A stretch of 32,620 nucleotides of DNA. Source: Gammaproteobacteria bacterium (lineage in GTDB: Bacteria > Pseudomonadota > Gammaproteobacteria > SZUA-152). Position 1 is the stretch's first letter, and every line of letters begins with the position of its first letter. The DNA lies in NCBI GenBank assembly GCA_024762755.1, contig JANTGX010000001.1, forward strand, positions 1 through 32,620, read 5' to 3'. Both the position numbers and the translations under genes were made by a program. Below, piece after piece: positions 9,341-24,933 of this stretch. Below the pieces are notes generated by a model. It was not told the DNA's origin. It saw only the letters and a program-made list of their open reading frames with translations, and searched no databases.

Positions 9341-11248
9341 ATGCTCGGCGGGATGCGCGCATTCAGAATCAATCCCCTTTTGTCGTGCCGGCGGCGTGTC
9401 TCGTGCCGACTGGTTGGGCTGTTCCTGCTCGCGGCCCTCGGTGTGGCCAACGCCGGTACGCTCGAGGAGCCGCCCCAGGCCCCGTCTCGGCAGGCGATCC
9501 AAGACGGCCTGGGCGAGGTTCAGGACCTCGCCGCGGCGCTGTACGCCGCCCGCGCCGAACCCCTGCAGACCCAGTTACAGGTGTTGTTCTCCCTGCGCCC
9601 GGATCGCCGTTTTGGCCTGCAGGGCATCACCCTGTCGGTGGATGGCGAACGCATGGCCGAACACACCTATTCGGCCGCCGAGATCGCGGCCCTCGCCGAC
9701 GGCGCCGCTCAGCCCCTGCTCAGTCTGCATCTGCCGCCCGGCGAACACCGCCTGACGGCCCACTGGCAGGGCGAGGCACCGCGCAGCGAACAGTTGCAAC
9801 GCGGCCTGGCGTGGTCTGTGCGCAGCGGCCAGGGCCGGCAGGTGGTGTTGCTGCAGCTGGCCCGGGCGGAGGGGGAGGATCTGCCCCGCCTCACGGCGCG
9901 GCCGGTGACGAGGCTGCTCGCGATCCAATACCGGGCGGCCCGTTTCGAGCAGGCTCTGGGTCGGCCGCTGGCGGCCAGCGCGCGCCTGTTGGCCGAGCGT
10001 GGGTTCGAGACCGGGGCGTCGACCGAGGACGTCGACGCCCTGCTGGCCGAGCTGTATCTGCAGCAGGGTCTGACCCTGCGCGCCGCTGCGCAACTACAGC
10101 GGCTGGCTAGGGCCGATGACCGCAGCTGGCTGTCTCTGGCCCGCCAACAGGCATGGACGGGAGATGCCGCCGGCGCCCTGCAGGCCCTGGCACGCATCGG
10201 CGACGGCCTGCCCGAGGCAATGGCGCGAGAGCGCGTGTTGCTCGAGGGCCGACTGCTGTTGGCGGTCGGGCGACTGCCGGCGGCCAGGCAGCGCCTGCAA
10301 CGGCTGGTGGAGGACGGGGGAAGGGCCGACGAGGCAGCCTATGGCCGCTTCAATCTGGCCGTGGCGTTGCGGCGTGAGGGCGACGCCGAGGCGGCGCGCG
10401 AGGCCCTCGATGAGCTGGGCCGGGCCAGGGGCGGCGGCGCCGAGCGCCAGGCCCTGCGCGACAAGGCCAATCTCACCCTCGCCTACGACCGTCTGCAGGC
10501 CGGTGAGCTGGAGCCGGCCGCCCGCTACTTCAAACGGGCGCGTCTCGAGGGTCCCCTCTCCAGTACCGCCCTATTGGGCCTGGGGCGGGTGTATGCCGCC
10601 GAGGAGGCCTACAAAAAGGCCCTGGTGCCCTGGCTGCGCCTGAGCAAGCGCGACCCCTCCGACCCCGCCGTGCAGGACGCCCTGCTGGCCGTGCCTTATG
10701 CCCTGGGCAAGCTGAATGCCTACAAACAGGCCTTGGCCTACTACAAACAGGCGGTGGCCAGCTTTCGCTTGGAGGCGGAGCGCCTGGCCAAGATCCGGCA
10801 GACGGTGGACGACGGCAGCCTGGTGCAGACCCTACAGCGGGCCTTCGTCGAAGAGGCGGGGGGTCTGTCGCAGGCACGCCTGCGTCGCCTGCCGGCGGCC
10901 ACCGGTGCCACGCACCTGTGGCAGCTTTACTCCACCAACCTGTTTCAGCAGGACCTGAGGAACTCTGCGCAGATCACCGGGTCATTGGAGAAAATCCATC
11001 GCTGGACGTCAGAGATATCCAGCGATAGCCGTCTGGCCACTGTGCGCCGCCGCGCCCTGCTGGCCCAGGCCGCCGATCTGGAGAACCGATTGAAGCCGTT
11101 GTCCCACCAGCTAGAACAGCACATGCAGGGTCTCGCCCGGCAGGAGTTGAGCCGCCGCGACGAGCGCATCAAGGCCTATGCCGAGGAGGCCCGCTTCTCC
11201 ATCGCCCAGATCTACGACTACGCGGCCAAGCGCTGGGGCGAACGTTAA
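9341..11248 (+). CDS. Secreted TPR-repeat protein (cluster gene 1)
   Basis: 635 aa. Signal peptide LVGLFLLAALGVANA-G. The C-terminal two thirds are Ala/Leu/Arg-rich helical repeats of TPR type. The start could instead be Met5 (9353). Confidence 0.8.
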   Translation: MLGGMRAFRINPLLSCRRRVSCRLVGLFLLAALGVANAGTLEEPPQAPSRQAIQDGLGEVQDLAAALYAARAEPLQTQLQVLFSLRPDRRFGLQGITLSVDGERMAEHTYSAAEIAALADGAAQPLLSLHLPPGEHRLTAHWQGEAPRSEQLQRGLAWSVRSGQGRQVVLLQLARAEGEDLPRLTARPVTRLLAIQYRAARFEQALGRPLAASARLLAERGFETGASTEDVDALLAELYLQQGLTLRAAAQLQRLARADDRSWLSLARQQAWTGDAAGALQALARIGDGLPEAMARERVLLEGRLLLAVGRLPAARQRLQRLVEDGGRADEAAYGRFNLAVALRREGDAEAAREALDELGRARGGGAERQALRDKANLTLAYDRLQAGELEPAARYFKRARLEGPLSSTALLGLGRVYAAEEAYKKALVPWLRLSKRDPSDPAVQDALLAVPYALGKLNAYKQALAYYKQAVASFRLEAERLAKIRQTVDDGSLVQTLQRAFVEEAGGLSQARLRRLPAATGATHLWQLYSTNLFQQDLRNSAQITGSLEKIHRWTSEISSDSRLATVRRRALLAQAADLENRLKPLSHQLEQHMQGLARQELSRRDERIKAYAEEARFSIAQIYDYAAKRWGER

Positions 11249-11249
11249 T

Positions 11250-14081
11250 ATGCGTCTGCGTCATTGGCTGCCCGTCGGGGCGTTGCTGCTGTCCGCCTGT
11301 GCCGGGGAGCAGACCCTGGAGGATCTCGGTGAGCTGGAGATCAAGATCGAGGACGACGCGCCCATCGCCGGCGCCCGTGACAAGGCCATGGACACCTACT
11401 GGGAGTTCATGTCCACCACCGCCGAGAAGGAACAGAAGGTCGAGGCCATGCGGCGCCTGGCCGATCTGGAGATGGAGCGCAGCGACGAGCGCTTCCAGCG
11501 GCAGATGGAGGTGCTCGACCGCATGGCCGAGGGTGAGGGCGCCGATCTGGCGACCCTGCGCGAGGTCACCTACCGCGGCGCCATCAAACTCTACGAAGAT
11601 GCACTGAAGGTGGCGCGCGGCGGGCCGCAGGAGCCCATCCTGCTGTATCAGCTGTCCAAGGCCTACGAGCAGGCAGGCCGCCAGCAACAGACCGTGGATG
11701 CCCTGCAGGCCCTGATCAAGCTGCGGCCGGAGGCCGAAAACCGCGACGAGTTGCACTTTCGCCGCGGCGAGATCCTCTTCGACATGCGACGCTTCGCCGA
11801 GGCGGAGCAGGACTACGCCGCGGTGGCCGCGCTGGGACTGCGCAGCAGCTACTACGACAAGGCCCTGGCCAAACAGGGCTGGTCGGCCTTCAAACAGGAG
11901 CACTACACTCAGGCCCTGGACGCCTTCACCGCCCTCATCGATCGCAAGTTGCGCACGGCCGATGGACGCATCGTCGATGACGACAGTCGCCTGAGCACCG
12001 GCGATCGCGAGCTGCTGCGGGACATCTTCCGGGTGGTCACCCTCAGCGTCAAGGAACTGGGCGGGGCGCCGGCCATCGCCCGCTACTTCGAGGCCAAGGG
12101 GCAGCGCCCCTACGAGCTGCGCCTGTACCGGGATCTGGGCGACTTCTATCTGCAGCAGGAGCGGATCCAGGACGCGGCCCTCACCTACCAGGCCTTCGCC
12201 CGCGCCTATCCGCTGCACCCACAGGCCTTCGAGTTCGACCTCGAGGCGATGCAGGCCTATGCCCGCGCCGGCTATGCCGGCCCCCTGATGCAGGCCAAGC
12301 AGGCGTTCGTCCGCCGCTACCGGGTCAACGGCCCCTTCTGGCGCCATCACATCGAGCACGAGACCACGGTGCTGGCCCGCCTGCGCCCCCTGCTGCGCAG
12401 CAATTCCGAGGACGTCGCCCGCTACCTGCACGCCCAGGCGCAGAAGACGAAGCGGGCCGAGGACTACCAGCGTGCCTTCATCTGGTACAAGCAGCACCTG
12501 AAGTGGTTCAACAAGAGCCGCAAGGCAAAGGAGCTCAACTTCCTCTACGCCGAGCTGTTGTTCGAGGCCGGCGACTACGCGCAGGCGGCCAAGGAGTACG
12601 AGAAGACCGCCTACGGTTATCTGCGCTACGGCAAGGATGCCGAGGCCGGGTATGCCTCCCTGCTGGCCTACACCGAGCACGAGAAACAGCTGACGGGCAA
12701 GCAGAAGGAGATCTGGAGTCGCCTGGCGGTGGGCAGCGCCCTGCGCTTCGGCAAGACCTTTCCCGACGACCCGCGCGCGGCCAAGGTCTTGACCCGCGCC
12801 GCGGAGGACATGTTCGCCCTGAAGAAATATCAGCAGGCGGCGGTGGCGGCGCGGCAGATCCTCGAGCTGTCCACCAAGACCTCGCCGCAGACCCGGCGCA
12901 CGGCCTGGAAGATCATCGCCCGGGCGGAGATCGAGAAGGGCGACTATGCGCGCGCCGAGGTGGCCTACAAGGTCGCCCTGAGCCTGACGCCGAAAGAGGA
13001 CGAGACCTCGCGCAGGCTGTTGCAGGACGGCCTGGCGGCGGCGGTGTACAAACAGGGCGAACAGATGCGGGCCAAGGGCAACCTGCAGGGGGCCATCACC
13101 CAGTTCACGCGGGTGGGGACGGTCGCCGCCGGCTCGGCGGTGGCCAGCGCCGCCGAATTCGACATCGCCAGTAGCCTGTTGACCACCGGCGACTACCGGG
13201 CAGCCATCGAGGCCCTGGCCAGCTTCCGGGAGGCCAATCCCGACAGCGAGTTGCTGCCCAAGGTGAGCCAGAATCTCATCCTGGCCTATCAGAAGACCGG
13301 CCAGCCGGGCATGGCGGCGCGCGAGCTGGAGCGTTACATGGCCCTGCAGAAAAAACCGGAGCTGCGCCGCGAGGCCCTCCTGCAGGCCATCGAGCTGTAC
13401 CAGGAGGCGGGCGAGACGGCGCGTGTGGTGGATGCCTACGAGCGTTATCTGCAAGCCTTTCCACGGCCCTTCGAACAAGCCATGGAGATCCGCCACACGC
13501 TGGCCGGCCTGGCCCGCGAGAGGGGTGACATGAGCGCCCTGCGCCGCTGGCAGGAGGCGCTGGTGCGGGAGGAACGGGCGGCGGGTACGGCGAGTACGCC
13601 GCGCACCCGCTTCCTCGCCGCGCAGGCGGCCTTCGACCTGGCCCAGCCGAGCCTGGCGGCCTATCGGCGGATCGAACTGGTGGCGCCCCTGAAGCAGAAC
13701 CTGAAGCGCAAGAAGGCGCAGATGCAGCGCGCGGTGGAGGCCCTCACCGAGGTGGCCAACTATGGGGTGGCCGAGGTGAGCACGGCGGCCACCTACCAAC
13801 TGGCCGAGGTCTATGCCGGGTTTGCCCAGGCGTTGATGGATTCGGAGCGCCCCGCTGGCCTCGACGACGAGGCGTTGGAGCAGTACGAGATCCTGCTCGA
13901 GGAACAGGCCTATCCGTTCGAAGAGAAGTCCATTACCCTCCACGAGTCCAACGTGGCCCACGTCAAGGAAGGAATATTCGACGACTGGGTGAAGAAGAGC
14001 CTGGCGCGCCTGCGCGAACTCAAGCCTTTCCGTTACGCCAGGGCCGAACGCCCTGAACCACTCGTCGAAGGTATTCGATGA
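11250..14081 (+). CDS. Large TPR-repeat lipoprotein (cluster gene 2)
   Basis: 943 aa from ATG 11250, 1 nt after the TAA of the upstream gene (TAATATG). Lipobox LLLSAC. TPR-like repeats run throughout (YQLSKAYEQAGR..., YAELLFEAGDYAQAAKEYEK...). Confidence 0.85.
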   Translation: MRLRHWLPVGALLLSACAGEQTLEDLGELEIKIEDDAPIAGARDKAMDTYWEFMSTTAEKEQKVEAMRRLADLEMERSDERFQRQMEVLDRMAEGEGADLATLREVTYRGAIKLYEDALKVARGGPQEPILLYQLSKAYEQAGRQQQTVDALQALIKLRPEAENRDELHFRRGEILFDMRRFAEAEQDYAAVAALGLRSSYYDKALAKQGWSAFKQEHYTQALDAFTALIDRKLRTADGRIVDDDSRLSTGDRELLRDIFRVVTLSVKELGGAPAIARYFEAKGQRPYELRLYRDLGDFYLQQERIQDAALTYQAFARAYPLHPQAFEFDLEAMQAYARAGYAGPLMQAKQAFVRRYRVNGPFWRHHIEHETTVLARLRPLLRSNSEDVARYLHAQAQKTKRAEDYQRAFIWYKQHLKWFNKSRKAKELNFLYAELLFEAGDYAQAAKEYEKTAYGYLRYGKDAEAGYASLLAYTEHEKQLTGKQKEIWSRLAVGSALRFGKTFPDDPRAAKVLTRAAEDMFALKKYQQAAVAARQILELSTKTSPQTRRTAWKIIARAEIEKGDYARAEVAYKVALSLTPKEDETSRRLLQDGLAAAVYKQGEQMRAKGNLQGAITQFTRVGTVAAGSAVASAAEFDIASSLLTTGDYRAAIEALASFREANPDSELLPKVSQNLILAYQKTGQPGMAARELERYMALQKKPELRREALLQAIELYQEAGETARVVDAYERYLQAFPRPFEQAMEIRHTLAGLARERGDMSALRRWQEALVREERAAGTASTPRTRFLAAQAAFDLAQPSLAAYRRIELVAPLKQNLKRKKAQMQRAVEALTEVANYGVAEVSTAATYQLAEVYAGFAQALMDSERPAGLDDEALEQYEILLEEQAYPFEEKSITLHESNVAHVKEGIFDDWVKKSLARLRELKPFRYARAERPEPLVEGIR

Positions 14082-14707
14082 CGATTTCCACCGAAGCGAG
14101 GAACCCACCCGTGCATAGCCGGAAATGGATACTGATGCTGCTCGTCCTGTGGTTGGCCGGCTGCGCCACCACGCCGCAGGAAGAGGGCGCCGAGCAGGCG
14201 CAGGCCAAAGCGCCGGGGACGGGCGTCGAAGCCCAGGCCAAGGCGGCCTTCGAACGCGCCCTGGCGGCCATGCGCGAAGGTCACGACGCGGAGGCCGCCC
14301 GCCTGTTCCAGCAGATGACGCAGACCTACCCGACACTATCCGGCCCACATGCCAATCTCGGCATCCTCGCCTTTCGTGCCGGCAAGCTGGACGAGGCCGA
14401 GGCGGCCTTCAAGCGCGCCCTGGCGTTGAATCCCAAGAGCGCCGTGAGCCTGGACTACCTCGGTGTCATCGCCCGCGAGCGCGGCGACTTCGAGCAGGCC
14501 GAGTCCTATTATCGGCAGGCCATCGCCGCGCGGCCCACCTACCCCAACGCTCACCGCAACTACGGCATCCTGCTCGACATCTACCTCGGGCGCCTGGACG
14601 AGGCGCTGGCCCAATACCGCGAATACGCCAAGTTGAGCGGCGGGGAGGACAAGCAGGTGGCGAAGTGGATCGTCGATCTGGAGCGCCGCACGGGGGCGAA
14701 GAAATGA
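14078..14707 (+). CDS. TPR-repeat lipoprotein (cluster gene 3)
   Basis: 209 aa. ATGA overlap with the upstream gene. Lipobox LWLAGC. Canonical TPRs are present (AEAAFKRALALNPKSAVSLDYLGVIARERGDFEQAESYYRQAIAARP). Confidence 0.85.
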   Translation: MTISTEARNPPVHSRKWILMLLVLWLAGCATTPQEEGAEQAQAKAPGTGVEAQAKAAFERALAAMREGHDAEAARLFQQMTQTYPTLSGPHANLGILAFRAGKLDEAEAAFKRALALNPKSAVSLDYLGVIARERGDFEQAESYYRQAIAARPTYPNAHRNYGILLDIYLGRLDEALAQYREYAKLSGGEDKQVAKWIVDLERRTGAKK

Positions 14708-15178: not shown

Positions 15179-15835
15179 ATGGATGGCGTAACAGCAATCG
15201 TTAAATTCTTCCAAGATGGTGGCGTGTTCATGTACGCCATCCTGCTGGTGTTCGCCTTTGGCGCCGCCATCGCCTTGGAGCGCTACATCTATCTGACCAA
15301 GGCCAAGCTGGTCAATCGCAGCATGTGGAACAAGTTGACGCCGCTGGTACAGGCCAACAACTTCCAGCAGGCCATGGCCCTGGCCGGCAAGTCGAAGAGC
15401 GACGTCGGTCACATCCTGGCCTACGGCCTCAGCCGCCTGCAGACCACCAAGCGCCGCGACGACATCGAGATGGCCATGGACGAGGGCCTGATGGAGGTCA
15501 TCCCGCGCCTGGAGAAGCGCACCCACTACCTGGCCACCTTTGCCAATATCGCCACCCTGCTCGGTCTGTTGGGCACCATCATCGGCCTGATCCAGGCCTT
15601 CACCGCGGTGGCTAACGCCAACCCGGCCGACAAGGCCGACCTGCTCTCGGCGAGTATCTCGGTGGCCATGAACACCACCGCCTTCGGCCTCATGGCGGCG
15701 ATCCCCCTGCTGCTCATGTATACCGTCTTGCAGACCAAGACCACGCAGCTGGTGGACAGCCTGGAGATGGCCGCGGTGAAGTTCCTCAACTCTTTGACCG
15801 AATTCCGCAACCCCAGCGTCCGTAAGTCGGACTGA
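15179..15835 (+). CDS. MotA/TolQ/ExbB proton-channel family protein (cluster gene 5)
   Basis: 218 aa with three TM segments. C-terminal signature LGLLGTIIGLIQAF...AMNTTAFGLMAAIPLLL. RBS GAGGAGA upstream. Confidence 0.93.
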   Translation: MDGVTAIVKFFQDGGVFMYAILLVFAFGAAIALERYIYLTKAKLVNRSMWNKLTPLVQANNFQQAMALAGKSKSDVGHILAYGLSRLQTTKRRDDIEMAMDEGLMEVIPRLEKRTHYLATFANIATLLGLLGTIIGLIQAFTAVANANPADKADLLSASISVAMNTTAFGLMAAIPLLLMYTVLQTKTTQLVDSLEMAAVKFLNSLTEFRNPSVRKSD

Positions 15836-15849
15836 CAGGGCCGCCAGCG

Positions 15850-16347
15850 ATGTCGATCAGGGCCCGAGTCAGGCGCGCCAAACCGGACGCGCCGGAGCTG
15901 GATATCACCGCCTTCATGAATCTCATGGTGGTGTTGGTGCCGTTCCTGCTGTTGTCCGCGGTGTTTTCCCACCTCTCCGTCCTCGAACTCAACCTGCCGC
16001 CGGACACTCCGCAGCAGGCGGCCAACAAGGACAAGAAAAAAGAGCGCAACTTCGAGGTCGTCGTGCGCAAGGACGAACTGGTGGTGGCCGACACCCTCGG
16101 CGGCGTCATCAAGCGCCTGCCCAAGCGCGACGGGCGATACGATTTCAAGGCCCTCTCCGATCTGCTGGTGGCGCTCAAACTCAAGTTTCCGCAGAAGCAG
16201 AACATCAGCCTGCTGCTGGAACCGAACATCCCCTACGAGACCTTGGTGCAGGCCATGGACACGGTGCGAGAAGTGACCGTGGTGGAATTCGCCCAGGCGG
16301 TGCGCAAGGAGCTGTTTCCGCAGATCGCCATCGGTGACGCCCCATGA
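15850..16347 (+). CDS. ExbD/TolR family protein, paralog 1 (TM Asp replaced by Asn)
   Basis: 165 aa. N-terminal basic segment, then a single TM (DITAFMNLMVVLVPFLLL) and a periplasmic domain. Asn24 (15919-15921) aligns by eye with ExbD Asp25 / TolR Asp23. Confidence 0.85.
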   Translation: MSIRARVRRAKPDAPELDITAFMNLMVVLVPFLLLSAVFSHLSVLELNLPPDTPQQAANKDKKKERNFEVVVRKDELVVADTLGGVIKRLPKRDGRYDFKALSDLLVALKLKFPQKQNISLLLEPNIPYETLVQAMDTVREVTVVEFAQAVRKELFPQIAIGDAP

Positions 16348-16853
16348 AGGCCTCGCGTCGCGCCCGGCGCATGAGTCAGCATCACGCGCGCAACAAACGT
16401 GCGGCGGGGCTGAACATGGTCTCCCTGATGGACATCTTCACCATCCTGGTGTTCTTTCTTCTGGTGAGCTCTTCCTCGGTACAAGACCTGCCCAATGCGA
16501 AGCAGATTCAGTTGCCGGAATCCACCTCCCAGCAGTTGCCCAAGGAGACGGTGGTGATCACCGTCAACCAGGCGGGTATCGTCGTGCAGGGGCGCAAGGT
16601 GGCCGAGGTCACGGGGTTGACGGGCAATGACGACAAGCCCATTCCCGCGCTCAAGGCCGAGCTGGAGAATCTGGCCAAGCGCAAGCTGACGCAGACCGGT
16701 GCCGACGGCAAGCCGGTGATGCGCGAGGTCACCATCCTCGGTGACAAGTCCATCCCCTTCAAATTGCTCAAGCGCATCATGCTCACCTGCACCCAGGCCA
16801 ACTACGGCAACATCTCCCTCGCCGTGCTGCACAAGACCGAGGGCGAGGGATAG
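16344..16853 (+). CDS. ExbD/TolR family protein, paralog 2 (TM Asp conserved)
   Basis: 169 aa. ATGA overlap with paralog 1. The TM is LNMVSLMDIFTILVFFLLV, with Asp30 at 16431-16433. Confidence 0.9.
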   Translation: MKASRRARRMSQHHARNKRAAGLNMVSLMDIFTILVFFLLVSSSSVQDLPNAKQIQLPESTSQQLPKETVVITVNQAGIVVQGRKVAEVTGLTGNDDKPIPALKAELENLAKRKLTQTGADGKPVMREVTILGDKSIPFKLLKRIMLTCTQANYGNISLAVLHKTEGEG

Positions 16854-16856
16854 TCC

Positions 16857-17828
16857 ATGGCCAGTCTTTACCGCCAGTACATCCTGCCCTGGACGCCGCT
16901 ACCCGACGACGATGGCTTGCTCAAACGCATCCTCATCGTGGTGCTCGCGGTGACCGTGGTGCTCAGTGTGGTGATCCCCTTCATCCCGGTGCCGAAGGAA
17001 GACCGTAACAAGGTCGAACCGCTGCCACCGCGCCTGGCCCAGTTGGTGATGGAGAAGCAGAAGCCCAAGCCGAAGCCGAAACCCAAGCCGGTCGAAAAGA
17101 AGAAGGAAGAAAAGAAGGCGGAGAAGAAGAAAGAGGAAAAGAAGAAAAAACCGCCGGAAAAGAAAAAGGTCGCGAAGAAGCCGGAACCGAAAAAGGTCGT
17201 ACCGCCCAAGCCCAAGGTGGATCGCGTCGCCGAGGCGCGGAAGAAGGCCGCGAGCACGGGCCTGCTGGCCTTTTCCGACGAGTTGGCCGATCTGCGCGAG
17301 GTGCCCAAACTCAAGCAGGGCAAGCCCCTGGTGAAGGGGGCCAAGGCGGCCAAGCCGCGCGCCCGCAAGGTGCTCACCGCGGGCCCGGCGAGCAGCGGTG
17401 GCATCGACACCTCCGGCCTGAGCAGTGGCGTGGGGCGGAGCGAGTTGGCCGGGCGGCAGATCACCCAGGTGGAGAGTCCGTCGGAACTGGTCGCTGCGGC
17501 CAAGCCGGCGGAGGCCGCGGCCAAGCCCGGCAAGAAACCCTCGCGCACCTACGAAGAAGTATCGTTGGTCTTCGATCGCAACAAGGGCGCCATCTATTCC
17601 CTCTACAGCCGCGCACTGCGCAAGGACCCCACCCTGCAAGGCAAGGTGGTGCTGGAGATCACCATTGCGCCGTCGGGCAAGGTGACGAAGTGCCGTATCG
17701 TCTCCAGCGAGCTGAACAACCCGCGTCTGGAGCGCAAGCTGGTCTCACGGGTGAAGATGCTCAACTTCGGCGCGCGTGACGTCGACACCCTGGTCGTCAC
17801 CTACCCCATCGATTTCCTGCCCTCGTAG
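16857..17828 (+). CDS. TonB-like energy-transducer protein with a C-terminal domain of AgmX/PglI type (cluster gene 8)
   Basis: 323 aa. N-terminal TM (ILIVVLAVTVVLSVVIPFI), then the linker QKPKPKPKPKPVEKKKEEKKAEKKKEEKKKKPPEKKKVAKKPEPKKVVPPKPK. The C-terminal roughly 90 aa read IYSLYSRALRKDPTLQGKVVLEITIAPSGKVTKCRIVSSELNNPRLERKLVSRVKMLNFG. RBS GAGGGA upstream. Confidence 0.8.
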   Translation: MASLYRQYILPWTPLPDDDGLLKRILIVVLAVTVVLSVVIPFIPVPKEDRNKVEPLPPRLAQLVMEKQKPKPKPKPKPVEKKKEEKKAEKKKEEKKKKPPEKKKVAKKPEPKKVVPPKPKVDRVAEARKKAASTGLLAFSDELADLREVPKLKQGKPLVKGAKAAKPRARKVLTAGPASSGGIDTSGLSSGVGRSELAGRQITQVESPSELVAAAKPAEAAAKPGKKPSRTYEEVSLVFDRNKGAIYSLYSRALRKDPTLQGKVVLEITIAPSGKVTKCRIVSSELNNPRLERKLVSRVKMLNFGARDVDTLVVTYPIDFLPS

Positions 17829-17903: not shown

Positions 17904-18452
17904 TCAGGCGATGGCGTCGAAACCGGCCAGGCTGGTGCCGCTGTCCTCCAACTCGGCACCGATCTCGGCATAGCGTTGCGCCCCCTTGGCGGGCGCTTGC
18001 TGCAACAGTTCGCGCTGTGCGCTGGCGGCCATCTGCGCCGCGCGTGCCGCCACGGCATGATCCTGTGCCGACGGCCGCGCTGGTGCCAGGGCGGCGGCGC
18101 GGATGGCCTCGGCCTTGCGCAGGCTGGCACGGGGATCGTCGGCCACCGCCGAGGTGTCGATGCTCACCTCGCCTCCCACCGCATAGCGTCGATTGTCTGG
18201 TCCCACTTGGTAGCTGAAGCTGGCGGCACCGCGCGCCAGTCCGCCGGCGGCGGCCTTGTGTGCCGCCTCGTGGGCGCGCACCTCACGATCGCGCGCCTTG
18301 AGCTTGTCTACCACGGCGCGCTGCTCGTCGCTCAGCGCCGTCCCGGCGCCCCCGTGATTCCCCGTTAGTTTCCCCTTCGTCGTCTCGGCTGGTGTATCCG
18401 TCGCTGGTCGCTGCGGCGGCATCGGGCCCGGGCGGCTGTGGCCGATCTGCAT
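17904..18452 (-). CDS. SprA-related / putative HExxH metalloprotease family protein
   Basis: 182 aa. The stretch KLKARDREVRAHEAAHKAAAG...SFSYQVGPDNRRYAVGGEVSIDTS...KAEAIRAAALAPARPSAQD matches my recollection of the SprA-related family. HEAAH is an HExxH motif. Confidence 0.75.
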   Translation of the reverse strand: MQIGHSRPGPMPPQRPATDTPAETTKGKLTGNHGGAGTALSDEQRAVVDKLKARDREVRAHEAAHKAAAGGLARGAASFSYQVGPDNRRYAVGGEVSIDTSAVADDPRASLRKAEAIRAAALAPARPSAQDHAVAARAAQMAASAQRELLQQAPAKGAQRYAEIGAELEDSGTSLAGFDAIA

Positions 18453-18685: not shown

Positions 18686-19067
18686 GGGCGGCTCAATGGG
18701 GTTGGCGACAGGAGGTGTCGGTTCTCCCTGCCTGTATCGTCCGCTGGCGAAAAGTCCCTAGGGTTCATTCGGGATCGCCGTTCAGCCTTCAGCGAGGCAG
18801 AATATTTCTAAACCAATAGCCTTGTAGGTAATATGGTCAATTATTTGGTGAGTCTTTAGCGCGGCCACGGCTACCGGGACTCTGAACACTGCAGAACAAA
18901 CTTCTAATAAAATTTCTAATACCAAATGTACGAGTTCCTGCTGAGCATCACAGCCACAATTGGCGGGCCAAGCAGCAAGATCAAGTAGCTTCGATACATG
19001 ATTCCCGACAATCTCTTTCAGTCATTTCGGACTTGCCCTGGAATACAGTGATTTCATACGCTGCTAG

Positions 19068-19088
19068 ATGCCGGATCGAATCCGGCAT
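19068..19088. repeat. Perfect 9-bp inverted repeat (hairpin) resembling a tRNA T-arm
   Basis: ATGCCGGAT-CGA-ATCCGGCAT. The inner part GCCGG-ATCGAAT-CCGGC resembles the T-arm consensus GGTTCGAATCC. No full cloverleaf could be folded around it. Confidence 0.5.
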
Positions 19089-19225
19089 GACAAAATGAGG
19101 TTTATTGGATAGCCGTGTTGCAATATATAAATACGTCAAGCCCGAAAGGATTCGGTATCTCGTATAACCTACCTATTTCTCTCCCTGTAAATAATCAACA
19201 GCCATGTTCAGGAACTATACCTATC

Positions 19226-22200
19226 TCAGAATCTGCGTGTCTTTCGAGTAAGGCTGGGTGCTAGCATAAAAACTAAGGTAAGCAGTTGCCAGGCATCAAT
19301 ACTCCCTCCAGAAACCGAACCACTATTCTCAAGATGATCCGGCTGTAGAGCAGCGTCCTCTCCGGTATCACCATCAGCAGCCACATCACCAGAGCCAGTA
19401 CTGCCCGACGAATTATCCACGCCGCCAGAGGTAGGATTTAGTCCTCCCGCCACATTCCCGGCGCTACCGTCTGGTGCTGCGTTTACCGTAACCGTAAGAC
19501 TACGCACAGCATTGCCGGCACTACCTTCGCAGGTCAGCACGAAGCGCGTATCTGCACTTAGCGGCCCCACAGTCTCACTGCCAGAAGGTCCTTTGATTCC
19601 TGACCAGCCACCGTCGGCCACGCATTTTCCCGCATCGGACGAAGACCAGCGCAAACTTACACTTGAACCGCTGTCCACACTGGCGGCACTGGAAGTAAAA
19701 TCCAATGAAGGATATGGCGTGGAGGAACCGCTACCCTCTGCCAGCTTATAGAGGAAGACATTTTGGTCAATGGCATTGACCAGCACATAGAGGTTTTTCG
19801 AAGGTATGTAGCGAAAGCGGCCATAGGTTCCCATGGCGCTGGGTCGGCTGGGGACAACCAAGTTACTTTTGGCGGCATCCATGCGATACCACACCAGGGA
19901 ATCTGGATCCAGGGCATAGACTTTATCTCCGCCATTCCAGGCAACGAAGCGGTCGGTCTTTGGATCGAAGACAAAACCAGCGGCTTTCGAGTCCTCGATC
20001 TCGTTTGCTCCCGTTGTGGGGCTCCATCCACCGGACACCGAAGCGGGGTCGGCGATGTCGTACACGACGGTCATGGCAGGCCCACCATAATTCGTGCCAC
20101 CGATGTAGACCAGTTTGCGACGATTCGGATCGATGGCCCCTGTCATGTAATACTCAAAGTCCGCGTTATCGAGATAGGTATTCCATGGATCCGAGGGATT
20201 GAGTGGATCGTATCGCTGCAATTTGCCATCCTTGACGAGCCAGACGTGGCCGGTAACCGAATCGTAGGCGGTTAAATTGCCGCAGCCACCCGGACCATCT
20301 GCCACCTTCTGCCAACCACTCTCAGCAGGAACCTCATCGAAATCATACAGCCATGTTGCACCCTGACAACCACCACTCCCGGGTACTGAGCCACCGGCAC
20401 TGAAGAAGCGATCGATATTAGGAAGGTATTCTAGACCGTTATATGTATGGCGGGAGGAAGGAAGGCCATCAAGGTAGATGTCTGAATTCAATTGACGCTG
20501 ATCAGCTGGGGTATCCAATGTGAGCTGCTGCCAATGCAGTGAGTTTATATCGAAAGCATAGAGCTCATTGCCATAATAGTTGTTGTGCCCGCCACCCCAA
20601 ACCACAAGACGATCGCGTTTGGTATCATAGGCCGCACCACTCCAGGGTTCCATGACATTTGGTTTGATACCACCGAGTTGGCTATAGATACTGGACTCCG
20701 GTACCTCGTACCAGTGCCCGGCCGGCAAGCTATCGAGCACGCTACTACTGGCCGCCGGGGCAGATATCATCACGGCTTTCGATCGCGCTGATTCGTTGCC
20801 TGCACCATCGAAGGCCGTGACTTGGTATGTATGTGTCGTACCAGGCGGCATGGACCGATCAATGAATCCGCTGGTGCCTGTTGTACCAATGAGTGCATCG
20901 TCGCGATAGATGTCATAACCGGCGACAAACATATCATCTACGGGAATATCCCACTTCAGGTAACTCTCCTGCGGAGAGACGGCGACCACGTGTAAGCCTG
21001 CAGGTATCTGCGGCGCAGTACCATCATTCAGCGGCAAGGCGCTGGCAAGCCACGAAACCTCGTCGGGGGATAGAGTTCGGGCATAGATACGCAAGTCGTC
21101 CAGGGCACCGTTCAACGCATTGCCCCATTCCGTGCTGTATTTCCCATTGTATACACCGACACTGAGCTTTCCGGATACATCCAGTGCCTGGGTACGACCG
21201 ATGTCCTCGGCCCGGAAGGCTTCCACGCCATCCTTATAGATCACCAGCACGCCATTACGTTTATGCCATGTCACTGCCACGTGGTGCCAGCCACCGTCAT
21301 CCAGGGCAATACCCGTGCTGACATCCCTGTCAGTGACTGGTTTCTTGAGGAATGTCATCCCTAGATCGCGCAGATTGAAGATCCGTAGTTGCTCGGTCAG
21401 CATGTCATCGGACATAAACGACAGAATGACCCGAGATCGATCACCTTCACCATTGCTTCGCACCCAAAAGGCGATGCTCAACTCGCTGTTGGAAAGGCCA
21501 CTGAGCGGCACAGAGACCCGGTCTCTCCGTGTGCTGTCGAACTGCATGGCGGTTCCGAGCATACCCGTGTCGGACACCGGGATCTCTTTGGACTTTCCGT
21601 CGTTACCCAGCCCGCTGCGGTCGATGATAGTGGCGTCGGTCAGCCCATCGAAATCCCAGTGCATCACCAGACCGGGTGCTGCATGGGCCATGCTGCTCGC
21701 CAGCACAAGTCCGCCAACGAGCAGCAGGTGAAAATTCCTGCCGCCTTTCCTGTCCAGGAGACGAGATACAAGACTGCGATACATCAGCAACATACTCAAA
21801 AGGATGAGTCCCCAGGGGGTGGTTGCACCGGCGCCGATCTTTTGGGCAACAGTAGTGGCATCAACCACTGTACTCGCGGCGTCTCCGTTTCCGTTGTCAC
21901 CACTGCTATTACTATCGCCACTGCTACTGCCACCGCCAGCGGTACTGCTGCTACCGCCACTATTACTACCATTATCGCTCCCCGATACCCTGATCAGCAC
22001 CGAACGTGTCGTTTCACCACCACTCCCAGAGCATTTCAAGGTATATACCGCATCACTCTGTAATTCGCTTGTGGCGTAAGTTCCGCTAAACTCTTTTTGC
22101 CCAGACCACGCACCACTTGCCACGCACCCGTCGGCGGAAGCAACAGACCAGCTCAGGTTGGCAATACCACTTGCAGGAACCTCGAAGCTATCTGCCGAAA

Positions 22201-24325
22201 AGTTCACCTTTGGACCACCCAAAGCCGAATCCAGTGAAAGTGGGGTAATAGCAAACTGTGGATCACTGGCATAATCTCTCGAGCTCGGATCACTGAAATC
22301 GCGAGGGTACTTCATTCGACCGACCAGCTTATTCCAGGCGGCATCGGCATTGGGGTAACCATAGTCGACGGCAAGCGCCAGCGCAGGTTGTAGATTGGAC
22401 GGGTAGCCCTCCGGGTTTGATGAATGTCCCGCCATTTCACCCGCCGCATACACCTTATTGCCATAAGGGTCGGTTTCAGTCAGCCAATTGGCCATTTCCT
22501 GCCCGCCACAGGCCATATCCTTGACATAGGTTCCCTGGCTGTCCTGCTTGTTACCAAAGGTATTCAGGTATACCTCCCCCAGACTCTGATACCAGTCATC
22601 CGGTGTGGCGACAATGCCATACACATGTTTGCCAATCGCCAGTTGATACACACCGCCAAAGATCCAACAGTAGACGTCGTCTGGCGAACTCATCCGTTCC
22701 ACGGGATACTTGGACTTCCATTGCAACATGGGCAGGAATTCGTCAAATCCCAAATTGACGATATAACCCGTCGCCCATGTGAAAAAGTCATCCATCCAGG
22801 GTGCAGAGGTATCCAGTTCACGATGGTGTGGCAAGGCGCCGAGCTTGTTGGCGTCTGGATTATTGGGGAATTGCTGTAGGTAGTAATCCAGATTGCGCTG
22901 CAACCGGTCACCAAAATAATCCTTCATGGGATGATTGTCGGGTGTAATGTATGCAGCTTGTGCCAAGGTGCGAAGGCCCCAGGCCTGGCCGCGAACTTCC
23001 TCTCCCTTTAGCAGCCCATCTCCATACTGACGCTTGCCAAGACTGGCTGAAATCATGTTCCCATTGGCCCAGAACAACAGTTCATCCAGATAAAAGTGAT
23101 CTCCGGTCAGCAAATAGGGAAGAAAGGCAAAGGAAGGTTGGTGCGCGGTATCTTTGCTATGAGGAATAGCACAATCAGTTGAGCATAGTGCAATAACATT
23201 GTCATTGGGATTCTGTCGTGAATCCCCGGTCACATTCGGGTAGTCGTCCAGTGAGACTGGCAAATCGGTATTGATATCCCGTAGGTGAGCGGCATAGGAG
23301 CCGGCAGCATCCCCATTGGCAAGCACGCTGCGATAGGCACGGTAATCCCCACTCACGATATAACGTGCCGCCCAACGGGGTAATGGTGCGATGCTGAAAT
23401 CTGCACCCCCAGCAGACATCCGCAACCGATTGCGCATATCCGCAAGCCCCATGGGTTCATAGACAGTCTTCCCCTGGCTCTCCAGCACATCCTCCGGAAT
23501 GGTTAACGCAGGATCATAGTGCGGCACCGCTTTGGTCTGCTGTAAATATTTTACGTCGTGACGAACGTATATCTTTGGCTGCGTGCCCCACCAGAATACC
23601 TTGTGCCAGCGCGCACGTTGATAGTGCGTCAGCTGGCCCTGGCGGTAAGCCTCCCGCCCTCCCACCAGAACACGGACGTCGTAGGTAAAATTCCGTGGTT
23701 CGGGAACATAGGTCCAGTTGTTCTCAACAATGGCGTCTACACGCACCGTACCCAAGCCACGATAAGCCCTGATATCAAAACGCGCCGTCAGATGCGGATG
23801 TGCTACACCATTTTCCGTGGTGAATTTTTCTTTAAGCAGAAATTCCGTCACTAGTGGACCTGATAACCAGCGATGGCTGCTATCGACATTCAGGGCATTT
23901 CGAGCCGAAGCGGTATACACCACCCCATCAAGGGTCAGCTCGATCACCGCATCAAAAGACGTATCGAGCAGGTCTGCGGCGCTCACAGGCACGCCGACCG
24001 CCGTTACATCACCCTTCGTCAGCTCAGATGCCAGCTGGTCGCCCCCCTGTAATGGCGGCAATTCAGTCGTGATCACGGCGTGACGCAGGGAGCCATCGCG
24101 GTGAGTCGCCTTGACATCGACTTGGGTTGGCAACTGCGCGCCCCCAACCTTGACAACAACGCCCGAACCCACAGGTACCTCGCCCTCCGAAAATACCTGC
24201 GCAAAGGTCACCGGTACACCGTCGACGGCTATCCCGCTTTGATCAATAAAAGTCACTTCTGGCATCGCCTGAGCGTTCCCAGCAGTAAGCAGCATCACAA
24301 ACACGGCGGACAACAAGCGACTCAT
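19226..24325 (-). CDS. Giant secreted multidomain protein (1699 aa from ATG 24325): two secreted-protein architectures in one reading frame
   Basis: The ORF is open from 24526 (GTG). A classical signal peptide MSRLLSAVFVMLLTAGNAQA-MP starts at ATG 24325. The order is as follows: an unrecognised domain of about 700 aa; an Ig-like Cys module; a Ser/Gly linker; a hydrophobic-basic tail; a second signal-peptide-like segment. After that come a LamG/ConA-like domain, FN3, a Kelch-like beta-propeller, a second Ig-like Cys module, a second Ser/Gly linker and the tail SGGSIDAWQLLTLVFMLAPSLTRKTRRF. Confidence 0.85.
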   Translation of the reverse strand: MSRLLSAVFVMLLTAGNAQAMPEVTFIDQSGIAVDGVPVTFAQVFSEGEVPVGSGVVVKVGGAQLPTQVDVKATHRDGSLRHAVITTELPPLQGGDQLASELTKGDVTAVGVPVSAADLLDTSFDAVIELTLDGVVYTASARNALNVDSSHRWLSGPLVTEFLLKEKFTTENGVAHPHLTARFDIRAYRGLGTVRVDAIVENNWTYVPEPRNFTYDVRVLVGGREAYRQGQLTHYQRARWHKVFWWGTQPKIYVRHDVKYLQQTKAVPHYDPALTIPEDVLESQGKTVYEPMGLADMRNRLRMSAGGADFSIAPLPRWAARYIVSGDYRAYRSVLANGDAAGSYAAHLRDINTDLPVSLDDYPNVTGDSRQNPNDNVIALCSTDCAIPHSKDTAHQPSFAFLPYLLTGDHFYLDELLFWANGNMISASLGKRQYGDGLLKGEEVRGQAWGLRTLAQAAYITPDNHPMKDYFGDRLQRNLDYYLQQFPNNPDANKLGALPHHRELDTSAPWMDDFFTWATGYIVNLGFDEFLPMLQWKSKYPVERMSSPDDVYCWIFGGVYQLAIGKHVYGIVATPDDWYQSLGEVYLNTFGNKQDSQGTYVKDMACGGQEMANWLTETDPYGNKVYAAGEMAGHSSNPEGYPSNLQPALALAVDYGYPNADAAWNKLVGRMKYPRDFSDPSSRDYASDPQFAITPLSLDSALGGPKVNFSADSFEVPASGIANLSWSVASADGCVASGAWSGQKEFSGTYATSELQSDAVYTLKCSGSGGETTRSVLIRVSGSDNGSNSGGSSSTAGGGSSSGDSNSSGDNGNGDAASTVVDATTVAQKIGAGATTPWGLILLSMLLMYRSLVSRLLDRKGGRNFHLLLVGGLVLASSMAHAAPGLVMHWDFDGLTDATIIDRSGLGNDGKSKEIPVSDTGMLGTAMQFDSTRRDRVSVPLSGLSNSELSIAFWVRSNGEGDRSRVILSFMSDDMLTEQLRIFNLRDLGMTFLKKPVTDRDVSTGIALDDGGWHHVAVTWHKRNGVLVIYKDGVEAFRAEDIGRTQALDVSGKLSVGVYNGKYSTEWGNALNGALDDLRIYARTLSPDEVSWLASALPLNDGTAPQIPAGLHVVAVSPQESYLKWDIPVDDMFVAGYDIYRDDALIGTTGTSGFIDRSMPPGTTHTYQVTAFDGAGNESARSKAVMISAPAASSSVLDSLPAGHWYEVPESSIYSQLGGIKPNVMEPWSGAAYDTKRDRLVVWGGGHNNYYGNELYAFDINSLHWQQLTLDTPADQRQLNSDIYLDGLPSSRHTYNGLEYLPNIDRFFSAGGSVPGSGGCQGATWLYDFDEVPAESGWQKVADGPGGCGNLTAYDSVTGHVWLVKDGKLQRYDPLNPSDPWNTYLDNADFEYYMTGAIDPNRRKLVYIGGTNYGGPAMTVVYDIADPASVSGGWSPTTGANEIEDSKAAGFVFDPKTDRFVAWNGGDKVYALDPDSLVWYRMDAAKSNLVVPSRPSAMGTYGRFRYIPSKNLYVLVNAIDQNVFLYKLAEGSGSSTPYPSLDFTSSAASVDSGSSVSLRWSSSDAGKCVADGGWSGIKGPSGSETVGPLSADTRFVLTCEGSAGNAVRSLTVTVNAAPDGSAGNVAGGLNPTSGGVDNSSGSTGSGDVAADGDTGEDAALQPDHLENSGSVSGGSIDAWQLLTLVFMLAPSLTRKTRRF
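19715..20734 (-). other. Kelch/galactose-oxidase-like beta-propeller region within the giant ORF
   Basis: Repeated blade-like segments are present (WSGAAYDTKRDRLVVWGGGHNNYYGNELYAFDINSLHWQQL; GHVWLVKDGKLQRYDP; RFVAWNGGDKVYALDPDSLVWYRM). Boundaries are approximate. Confidence 0.6.
20759..21016 (-). other. Fibronectin type III domain within the giant ORF
   Basis: The stretch APQIPAGLHVVAVSPQESYLKWDIPVDDMFVAGYDIYRDDALIGTTGTSGFIDRSMPPGTTHTYQVTAFDGAGNES matches the FN3 pattern. Confidence 0.75.
21041..21679 (-). other. LamG / concanavalin-A-like lectin domain within the giant ORF
   Basis: The stretch LVMHWDFDG...IDRSGLGNDG...GTAMQFD...SIAFWVR...WHHVAVTWHK..VLVIYKDG...GALDDLRIYARTLSPDEV is the classical Laminin_G_3 pattern. 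Confidence 0.8.
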
Positions 24326-24933
24326 GCGCCGAATCCCACCAGCAAGTAGCCAATCGGATGATAACGCTATGCTTCTGGCTGCGGGCACCTTCTTCCTATT
24401 GCGTTGCTTCGTAGCAATAATGACCCGATTCGTTATTTGCATATTCACATCAGTGCTCCAAAATTGGTCACGAGACGCTAAACTCTGTATCTGCCTTGTA
24501 TCATCGCTCACAGGAAAATGCGTCACGTGATCCGCGTCACAAAGCCTAGAAGCTACATTTTTCTCTTTACATACAAAACTTCACGGTTGTCCGCGTGAAT
24601 ACGCAGTATCTGGGTTGCTGGGGCATTGAGGCGGCAGGCGATTATTTAAACCATTGTGTACAAGGTCCAGGCGGTTCGGGGCCGGTTGACTGAGCATTAT
24701 CGTATCCATCTGCTGACAGTTCGACCTATTCATCATGGTTGCATGTTCTAGAGGGGGCTCGATCCATTGGAACGGCTTGCTATTGATCGCGGCGATTTTG
24801 CCAGTGCTTCGATACGAAAGGCCGAGTTTGAACGCTTCATCAATGTCCGGAATGCGAAAGGCGCGGAGCTATTTTAGTGGATCAAACCGGCAAGTCGGAT
24901 TCTGACAGCCGTTGGTCATGCAAAGGAGTCGTT

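Follow-up and report, generated by a model that had tools for sequence, protein, structure and literature searches.

Thony-Meyer et al. reportedly described, in 1989 and 1991, a cytochrome b-c1 precursor of Bradyrhizobium japonicum, FbcH, that is split at an internal signal peptide. Viral envelope polyproteins are organised by internal signal peptides and stop-transfer anchors, and are cut by the host signal peptidase (for example, PMC5113920, PMC7926653). In Vibrio cholerae, a rhombosortase cuts the exported protein VesB after the Gly-Gly of its C-terminal sorting tail, and the product reaches the surface via the type II system (PMC6219818, PMC13393428). Here we analyse a giant gene carried by a stretch of 32,620 nucleotides from a Gammaproteobacteria bacterium (assembly GCA_024762755.1, contig JANTGX010000001.1, positions 1 to 32,620; hereafter 'the window'). 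Its annotated product, P0001, has 1699 amino acids (aa) and is encoded by an open reading frame (ORF) at 19226-24325 on the minus strand, with its ATG at 24325. A preliminary description of this DNA, made from the sequence alone, had read it as two complete secreted-protein architectures joined head to tail with no stop codon, and this is what we find; moreover, each half exists elsewhere as a stand-alone gene. We propose that it is a real, expressed fusion of two genes, made workable by a membrane hairpin encoded at 21680-21841 and accompanied by processing of the chain, and we give this reading a probability of about 0.65. Taken alone, the claim of a real fusion descended from tandem genes is very probable indeed.

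Between 24526 and the stop at 19226, the minus-strand frame is uninterrupted, so that the two architectures are indeed not separated by any stop, and the positions previously given for the start (24325), the end of the internal leader (21680) and a possible internal start (21784) are accurate to the base. Recoding or an alternative genetic code was considered and rejected, since translation table 11 gives an open frame, which is also the one in which homologues align. The junction between module 1 (upstream) and module 2 (downstream) is made up of the following elements, where a slash marks a predicted cleavage site here and below:

21842..21976, minus strand: Ser/Gly/Asn-rich low-complexity linker (aa 784-828), read directly
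21779..21841, minus strand: internal sorting-tail transmembrane segment KIGAGATTPWGLILLSMLLMY (aa 829-849), GlyGly-CTERM-like, divergent, predicted N-out/C-in
21782..21784, minus strand: in-frame ATG (Met848), the possible internal start of the preliminary description
21728..21778, minus strand: basic loop RSLVSRLLDRKGGRNFH (aa 850-866), with five Arg/Lys and one Asp, read directly, predicted to be cytoplasmic
21698-21727, minus strand: h-region of the internal signal peptide, LLLVGGLVLA (aa 867-876), from a rule-based scan
21680-21697, minus strand: c-region of the internal signal peptide, SSMAHA (aa 877-882), from the same scan
between 21680 and 21679, minus strand: predicted signal peptidase I (SPase I) site AHA/AP, with the mature start APGLVMHWDFD at 21679

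The scan for leaders (positive n-region, hydrophobic 9-mer, small-x-small motif) returned just two sites over the 1699 residues of P0001, the N-terminus and aa 865-882, the latter being the segment already recognised as leader-like in the preliminary description. By rule, it has all the parts of a Sec-type SPase I leader: a positively charged n-region (DRKGGRNFH, ahead of the h- and c-regions listed above), an h-region within some 7-15 hydrophobic residues, small residues without charge at both -3 and -1, and a residue other than Pro at +1. An h-region of 10 residues has the length of a cleavable leader, not that of a stable anchor. At the junctions examined in relatives, h-regions were likewise short (about 9-14 residues), and all 23 tabulated junctions had Ala at -1 and Ala, Val, Ser or Thr at -3. 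Because of the 10-residue h-region and of the -3/-1 rule in these 23 junctions, SPase I is predicted to cut after AHA.

The hydrophobic stretch ahead of this leader (aa 829-849), with the basic residues that follow it (aa 850-866), had been likened to a C-terminal sorting tail, and the comparison holds. When 60 C-terminal tails taken from relatives, with the window protein left out, were made into a profile, it matched P0001 solely at aa 829-854 (8.1 bits), the only internal match, and at aa 1668-1689 (6.2 bits), the best score among 300 control shuffles being 3.7. Both window tails display the tripartite anatomy of a Gly-rich motif, one transmembrane segment and a basic cluster: the internal one reads GAGA-TTPWGLILLSMLLMY-RSLVSRLLDRK, and the C-terminal one SGGS-IDAWQLLTLVFMLAPSL-TRKTRRF. 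The former aligns with the internal tail SGGGSSGPWSLLLLGLFVVW of the relative P0004, and the latter resembles SGGSLDALMLAV.. of P0022 and GGGSFDPWMVAALL.. of P0017. Sec-dependent insertion obeys the positive-inside rule, and allows for stop-transfer and re-initiation. The tail is predicted to be N-out/C-in and the leader N-in/C-out, with the basic residues in the cytoplasm; the two should therefore form a hairpin with a short, basic cytoplasmic loop. Over the 52 codons of the hairpin, the ratio of nonsynonymous to synonymous substitution rates (dN/dS) was 0.18, 0.40 and 0.42 in three pairs, compared to 0.08-0.16 in the flanking modules. Purifying selection thus acts on the hairpin, more loosely than on the modules, as is usual for leaders and anchors.

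We then examined whether the junction is shared by relatives, designated below by protein (P) or locus (L). A search with the full protein gave relatives of 1634-2216 aa that span both halves and have intact ORFs; those with the same in-frame junction derive from independent assemblies, of different samples and lineages. Nine fully sequenced relatives, P0002-P0010 (45-64% identity), have the module order of P0001 and a homologous junction, which reads SGGGSSGPWSLLLLGLFVVWRRLRGILSMGRRSTRTLAQRMAVVFALISVSAQA/NTPGLVLHWDFD in P0004; the P0002 cluster has three members from three assemblies, each of 1951 aa. The opposite order, with LamG-FN3-propeller first, was found in P0011 and P0012, where a tail plus leader hairpin again stands between the modules. 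A similar junction links a propeller to a module 1 behind it in P0014, P0021, P0022, P0024, P0026, P0028 and L031 (GGGGSLDVFTLLLLAFAVLWRYRTRVRHVFALTLAALLLSTSAKA/GDITTITLQ in P0026), and P0006 continues, past a second hairpin with a lipoprotein-type leader (..WRRRYINMMLKVFFLPLIIVLLSAC/GG), into a third module. A search with module 2 added cassettes with other partners, namely P0084 (a tetratricopeptide repeat (TPR) lipoprotein), P0101, P0107, P0120, P0143 and P0175. Altogether, 30 of the 232 family proteins scanned contained internal hairpins (31 hairpins, 28 of them non-identical). Every one has a Gly-rich motif ahead, a net-positive loop and a small-x-small motif or lipobox Cys behind, and the loops of relatives contain 3-9 Arg/Lys and at most one Asp/Glu. 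These counts come from called homologues only, as most of what a six-frame scan of the high-GC loci picked up was noise, from frames that do not code and from polytopic proteins. In the genome collection, the fused relatives are all metagenome-assembled genomes (MAGs) of Gammaproteobacteria, Lysobacterales, Chromatiales and Steroidobacteraceae.

Three observations on individual relatives may be added. Internal lipoprotein-type leaders (..LSAC/GG, ..LGGC/GG) directly follow a GlyGly-like tail in P0006 (aa 1703-1742, L004), P0120 (aa 630-667) and P0084 (aa 649-710); if they are used, Lgt and Lsp would have to act on an internal signal. For P0012 (L005/L016), the frame is open for about 139 codons upstream of the start called at 10001 (1773 compared to 1634 aa), and its annotated N-terminus, which lies within the LamG domain, is probably too short. 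Finally, the MAG copies in L011 and L014 are 90% identical in the module 1 core and identical over the hairpin and the first 233 codons of module 2 (pS 0.012); near the linker, there is thus either a mosaic produced by recombination or an assembly chimera.

The preliminary description had asked whether homologues of the two halves are separate genes elsewhere, and they are. L010, L013, L021 and L030 carry these genes as tandem neighbours, at a distance of 13-100 nt and separated by a stop codon. In L010 and L013, the stop of module 1 is followed by 25 nt and then by ATG MICIKKSKLLAITLAFFSCVTVTSHSLA/ANELGLILHWDFD, that is, by a module 2 with an ordinary N-terminal leader; its cleavage site (SHSLA/ANELGLILHWDFD) and the window AHA site are at equal distance from the LamG domain. 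The Acidiferrobacteraceae MAG of L030 has a gene consisting of leader, module 1, GGGGSLGWLSLLGLVF and tail (...SSTGGGGSLGWLSLLGLVF...), which ends with a stop and is followed by a leader-propeller-tail gene, both tails being of the GlyGly type. L021 has a row of three genes, all with leaders, of which the first two end in GlyGly-type tails; only 13 nt and a few tens of nucleotides separate them. Stand-alone forms thus exist for module 1 with leader and tail (P0031, P0037, P0051, P0053, L030), for module 2 with its own leader (L010, L013), and for the propeller with leader and tail (P0136, P0138, L030). The tandem loci support, as the origin, fusion of adjacent genes through loss of a stop codon, the first of three possibilities considered in the preliminary description. 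P0091 was also tried as a stand-alone module 2, and rejected: its contig (L009 1-19) begins 16 nt before the Met, the frame is open upstream, and KRGDT-M is read as in P0010. It is probably a truncated fusion, and other single-module database entries of this family can likewise be truncation artefacts.

The preliminary description had also pointed to homologues with the same continuous architecture and no internal leader-like segment as evidence against its proposal. One such protein was found among 13 close relatives, P0013, whose modules are joined directly (..DDGSGGGSSGLVMHWDFD). In addition, many proteins made of propeller and module 1 have a single leader and no internal hydrophobic segment, and P0015, P0027 and others are seamless as well. 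We regard P0013 as a further evolutionary step and not as an error in the reading. The family therefore presents three stages: tandem genes, hairpin fusions and seamless fusions.

As to the sorting system involved, TIGR03501 (GlyGly-CTERM, curated cut-off 15.5 bits) was passed by the internal tail of P0004 (21.1 bits) and the C-terminal tails of P0050 (19.7) and P0026 (16.4), and the tails of other relatives scored slightly under the cut-off. A rhombosortase gene (TIGR03902, 136.9 bits for a cut-off of 84) was searched for in 90 loci and in the window, and found only in L030 (5222-5881, minus strand), where it is divergent from the adjoining module 1 gene of the unfused pair. Since the tails of relatives pass TIGR03501 and the L030 rhombosortase adjoins a module 1 gene, the family is linked to the rhombosortase system, a link that does not establish membership for the window's own tails. 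Filing these tails as TIGR03501 members was considered and rejected, as they gave no NCBIfam match.

A history and a mechanism can be proposed on this basis, in which we infer how the chain lies in the membrane, that both cuts are made, which enzyme cleaves the tails in this organism, and that export continues across the outer membrane. The ancestor would be a tandem pair in which each gene encoded a Sec leader, a module for catalysis or binding, a repeat with two Cys, a Ser/Gly linker and a tail of the GlyGly-CTERM type. When the stop separating the genes was lost, tail 1 and leader 2 would have become direct neighbours within a single frame, an arrangement kept since it preserved topology. 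In the fused chain, leader 1 would take module 1, with its PL26-like lyase fold, through SecYEG, and tail 1 would stop transfer. Leader 2 would then restart translocation for module 2 (LamG-FN3-propeller), and tail 2 would anchor the end of the chain. SPase I would cut after AHA (aa 882), freeing the N-terminus of module 2, while a rhombosortase-type intramembrane protease would cut both tails near their Gly-rich motifs. The outcome would be two envelope or surface proteins in a 1:1 ratio, plus a small hairpin peptide that is degraded. This full processing model, with both cleavages and two proteins, we hold to be probable, with appreciable room for doubt.

Several alternatives have to be weighed against this. 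That the gene is a sequencing or assembly error, or a recent neutral fusion on its way to becoming a pseudogene, might be suspected from its metagenome-assembled contig, from the foreign-looking low-GC island in which it lies (see below) and from the mosaic around the linker in L011 and L014. It is not an error, because some 28 different relatives carry the same cassette, in both module orders. The junction recurs in independent assemblies at 45-64% identity, the length of P0002 is the same in three of them, the ORFs of relatives are intact, and the domains keep a dN/dS of 0.08-0.16 and the hairpin one below 0.45; artefact or decay is thus very improbable. A different view is that module 2 is mainly translated alone, from Met845 or Met848 in the tail and loop region, the full-length fusion being minor or irrelevant. 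A Met does stand where the leader would begin in P0004 (MGRRSTRTL..), P0010 (MNAKKKCAL..), P0012 (MPELRSFRM..) and P0022 (MRLRKVLL..). Duplex energies with the anti-Shine-Dalgarno sequence were computed for every in-frame start in nine junctions, those of the window and eight relatives. A credible Shine-Dalgarno sequence and start at the leader were found only in P0010 (gaggagacacgATG, -8.9 kcal/mol, MNAKKKCALSVVMAGILAGSAQA), where it is stronger than that of the gene's own start (-7.3) and is kept with its ATG in L009, and in P0012 (-6.0 kcal/mol). In the window, neither Met845 (-5.5 kcal/mol) nor Met848 (-2.2) is preceded by such a sequence, as the preliminary description had remarked for 21784; over all codons of the gene, the background averages -2.9, with its 5th percentile at -7.1. 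Both ATGs lie within the transmembrane segment of the tail, 35-38 residues ahead of the cleavage site, the loop (aa 850-866) has no start codon, and no promoter-like site was seen at 21500-22400. P0002, P0004, P0006, P0022, P0026 and P0028 have no credible internal site either, yet all keep the leader features. Moreover, if module 2 were always made separately, the missing stop in many lineages and the existence of both gene orders would be left unexplained. Expression of module 2 from an internal start, the second possibility of the preliminary description, is thus plausible in P0010 and P0012, and unlikely in the window for want of a Shine-Dalgarno sequence and of a suitably placed start codon; as a general explanation we rate it as quite unlikely. 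Because an internal ribosome-binding site is absent from the window and from six of the eight relatives, module 2 can, as far as these sequences tell, reach the periplasm of most lineages, including that of the window, only if the internal leader works in mid-chain.

It may also be that the hairpin inserts as proposed and that one or both cleavages fail, leaving a two-lobed periplasmic enzyme held in the inner membrane by the hairpin and by the C-terminal anchor. The evidence on topology fits this equally well, the window tails are too divergent for TIGR03501, the window has no rhombosortase, and P0013 illustrates that covalent linkage of the modules is tolerated. On the other hand, all junctions examined keep, after a short h-region, either Ala at -1 with a small residue at -3 or a lipobox Cys, which is the signature of a cleaved leader; Gly-rich motifs precede the tail in all hairpins, relatives pass the GlyGly-CTERM model, and one of them has an adjoining rhombosortase. 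We therefore consider an uncut anchor unlikely, if less so than separate translation. A number of points do count against the fusion with processing that we favour. The internal ribosome-binding sites kept in P0010 and P0012 make separate translation of module 2 possible in some lineages, and P0013 indicates that the modules are able to function in a single chain that is not cut. In tail 1, the strongly hydrophobic residues number only about 12 (WGLILLSMLLMY). Neither window tail matched TIGR03501, even at E <= 10, or reached any other NCBIfam sorting domain, and no rhomboid-family or rhombosortase gene was found within the 32.6-kb window. By definition, GlyGly-CTERM stands at the very C-terminal end of a protein (PMC3237569), where the second tail (aa 1668-1699) does lie; the internal one (aa 829-861) is followed by 838 residues. 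Lastly, a home-made leader profile from 104 family N-termini scored the true N-terminal leader at -1.7 bits and the internal one at -0.7, for a shuffle maximum of 2.9, and was discarded as non-discriminating. On balance, a single polypeptide with a membrane hairpin that displays both halves outside the cytoplasm, the third possibility of the preliminary description, provides the best functional reading: the cassette is conserved, it obeys the positive-inside rule, and the -3/-1 motif is present in every junction scanned.

The remaining features of the gene, and the island around it, are as follows:

24266..24325, minus strand: N-terminal signal peptide of module 1, MSRLLSAVFVMLLTAGNAQA (aa 1-20), followed by MPEVTF, read directly
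22241..24265, minus strand: module 1 core, a beta-sandwich and an alpha-helical barrel (aa 21-695), from an AlphaFold2 model and Foldseek
21977..22240, minus strand: two-Cys beta-rich repeat of about 88 aa, copy 1 (aa 696-783), from BLAST self and cross matches
21053..21526, minus strand: Laminin_G_3 (concanavalin-A-like lectin) domain of module 2 (aa 934-1091), Pfam PF13385
20777..21004, minus strand: FN3-like domain (aa 1108-1183), from a weak Pfam fn3 match and an NCBIfam CbhB region
19736..20737, minus strand: Kelch-type beta-propeller (aa ~1197-1530), from weak Pfam Kelch matches
19475..19735, minus strand: two-Cys beta-rich repeat, copy 2 (aa 1531-1617), from BLAST self and cross matches
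19229..19324, minus strand: C-terminal sorting tail of module 2, SGSVSGGSIDAWQLLTLVFMLAPSLTRKTRRF, with Gly-Gly motif, transmembrane segment and basic end (aa 1668-1699)
18750..24900: low-GC island holding only the giant gene, from composition profiles

The N-terminal leader aligns with those of relatives, which end in AQA/KPDVTF, and the linker (aa 784-828) differs between relatives in length and composition. For module 1, aa 21-700 gave no Pfam family at E <= 0.1 and no sequence or profile match in the PDB. The AlphaFold2 model of the same residues (pLDDT 90.2, pTM 0.93) had as best Foldseek matches 5xq3, 5xqg and 5xqo, which are structures of PcRGLX of family PL26 (E 1e-6, probability 1.0, TM-score 0.35-0.45, 9% identity), and all 13 matches at E <= 0.001 were PcRGLX chains (E 1e-6 to 9e-5). 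The fold is shared, and membership at the sequence level (PF19501/PF21345/PF21346, CAZy PL26) was not found for the window protein; PF19501 is recorded on several homologues. From the model, module 1 is thus a distant structural relative of the PL26 exo-rhamnogalacturonan lyase. Of the domains previously assigned to module 2, LamG is a clear member of PF13385 (75.1 bits, E 8.4e-21, cut-off 27.6). FN3 and the propeller are weak in Pfam: fn3 has E 0.033, the FN3 region of NCBIfam CbhB matching aa 1095-1193 at E 4e-14, and the Kelch matches range from E 9e-6 to 0.05, all under their cut-offs. The propeller region recurs in more than 100 representatives. What had been called an Ig-like Cys module is a real repeat common to relatives, which BLAST placed at aa 696-783 and 1530-1617 of the protein and in 1-3 copies in relatives; it has no Pfam match.

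Because a PL26-like module and a propeller are paired in all three stages, the two are predicted to work together on exopolysaccharide. Relatives sit in polysaccharide loci, and it is a reasonable inference that the pair may cut or remodel such a polymer. The closest relative, P0002 (L003 301-22427), is located inside an exopolysaccharide cluster of the exosortase A system (TIGR03097, 547 bits; TIGR03098, 772; TIGR03099, 633; all above cut-off), and despite this its tails are of the GlyGly type, not PEP-CTERM. None of these three markers was found among the neighbours of the gene in the window.

The island (18750-24900, about 6 kb) has a GC content of 0.42-0.62, for 0.62-0.76 in its surroundings. 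No tRNA, integrase or flanking repeats were found at its boundaries, and it looks like the horizontal acquisition of a single gene. It is bordered on one side by TPR proteins, ExbB/ExbD/TonB and an SprA-related fragment, and on the other by cobalamin genes. Three consecutive large TPR proteins (635, 967 and 209 aa) are encoded at 9341-14707 on the plus strand, the first two ORFs overlapping by about 70 nt, and are followed at 15179-17828, on the same strand, by ExbB, two ExbD genes and a TonB-like gene. A 182-aa ORF at 17904-18452 on the minus strand matches only positions 183-290 of a 335-position SprA-related profile, and may be a fragment beside the island boundary. The TypA protein of the window is 86% identical to that of Thiohalomonas denitrificans and groups with those of uncultured Gammaproteobacteria.

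C-terminal sorting signals and N-terminal leaders are regarded, and annotated, as belonging to the ends of proteins; in this family, both are found in mid-protein, conserved and recurrent. Natural bacterial polyproteins of exported enzymes thus probably exist, and housekeeping membrane proteases would resolve them. The three stages within one family would explain why such fusions are not lethal to export, and the family lends itself readily to testing the acceptance of internal signals by rhombosortase, by signal peptidase I and by the lipoprotein pathway. Proteins of this kind will be wrongly split or annotated by gene callers and domain models, as P0091 exemplifies. We tentatively suggest, with slightly more doubt than confidence, that the tail plus leader hairpin may be a general topology-preserving fusion cassette of Gram-negative bacteria, in which stop loss merges neighbouring genes of the leader...GlyGly-CTERM type, and SPase I, or Lgt/Lsp for internal leaders with a lipobox such as those of P0006, P0084 and P0120, would together with rhombosortase cut the products apart again at the inner membrane. 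If so, it would be a bacterial counterpart of viral envelope polyproteins, and rhombosortase and the lipoprotein pathway would act on internal as well as terminal signals.

Rhombosortase and myxosortase papers and full-text searches, whose coverage of the literature is incomplete, yielded no mention of an internal GlyGly-CTERM or of a tail plus leader fusion. The parts are known (Sec leaders, GlyGly-CTERM tails, gene fusion), as is the logic, from viral polyproteins and FbcH; for the back-to-back tail and leader retained as a recurrent cassette in bacterial secreted proteins, we found no prior description. Like VesB, the substrate of the rhombosortase RssP in Vibrio cholerae, the window protein would be a Sec-exported enzyme with a tripartite tail after an unstructured linker; here, however, one tail is internal, and the frame continues behind it into a second leader and a module of 817 aa. 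With PcRGLX (5xq3), module 1 shares the overall fold, at the low identity and TM-score given above and without a Pfam match. As in Rosetta-stone fusions, adjacent and functionally linked genes have become one ORF, with the difference that an internal tail and leader are retained and conserved. FbcH likewise yields two envelope proteins from one bacterial gene, cut at an internal leader behind a membrane segment, but its two parts are a polytopic membrane protein and a periplasmic cytochrome, not two complete secretory precursors; it lacks a sorting tail, and it stands as one case where the cassette described here recurs. The same logic is found in flavivirus C-prM-E and bunyavirus Gn/Gc, where an N-out/C-in anchor, a short cytoplasmic loop and an internal leader are combined with a signal peptidase cut on the far side. 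The proposed bacterial version would differ in being encoded on a chromosome, in using Sec and SPase I (or Lsp), in having as its anchor a sorting signal for an intramembrane protease, and in releasing enzymes instead of virion proteins.

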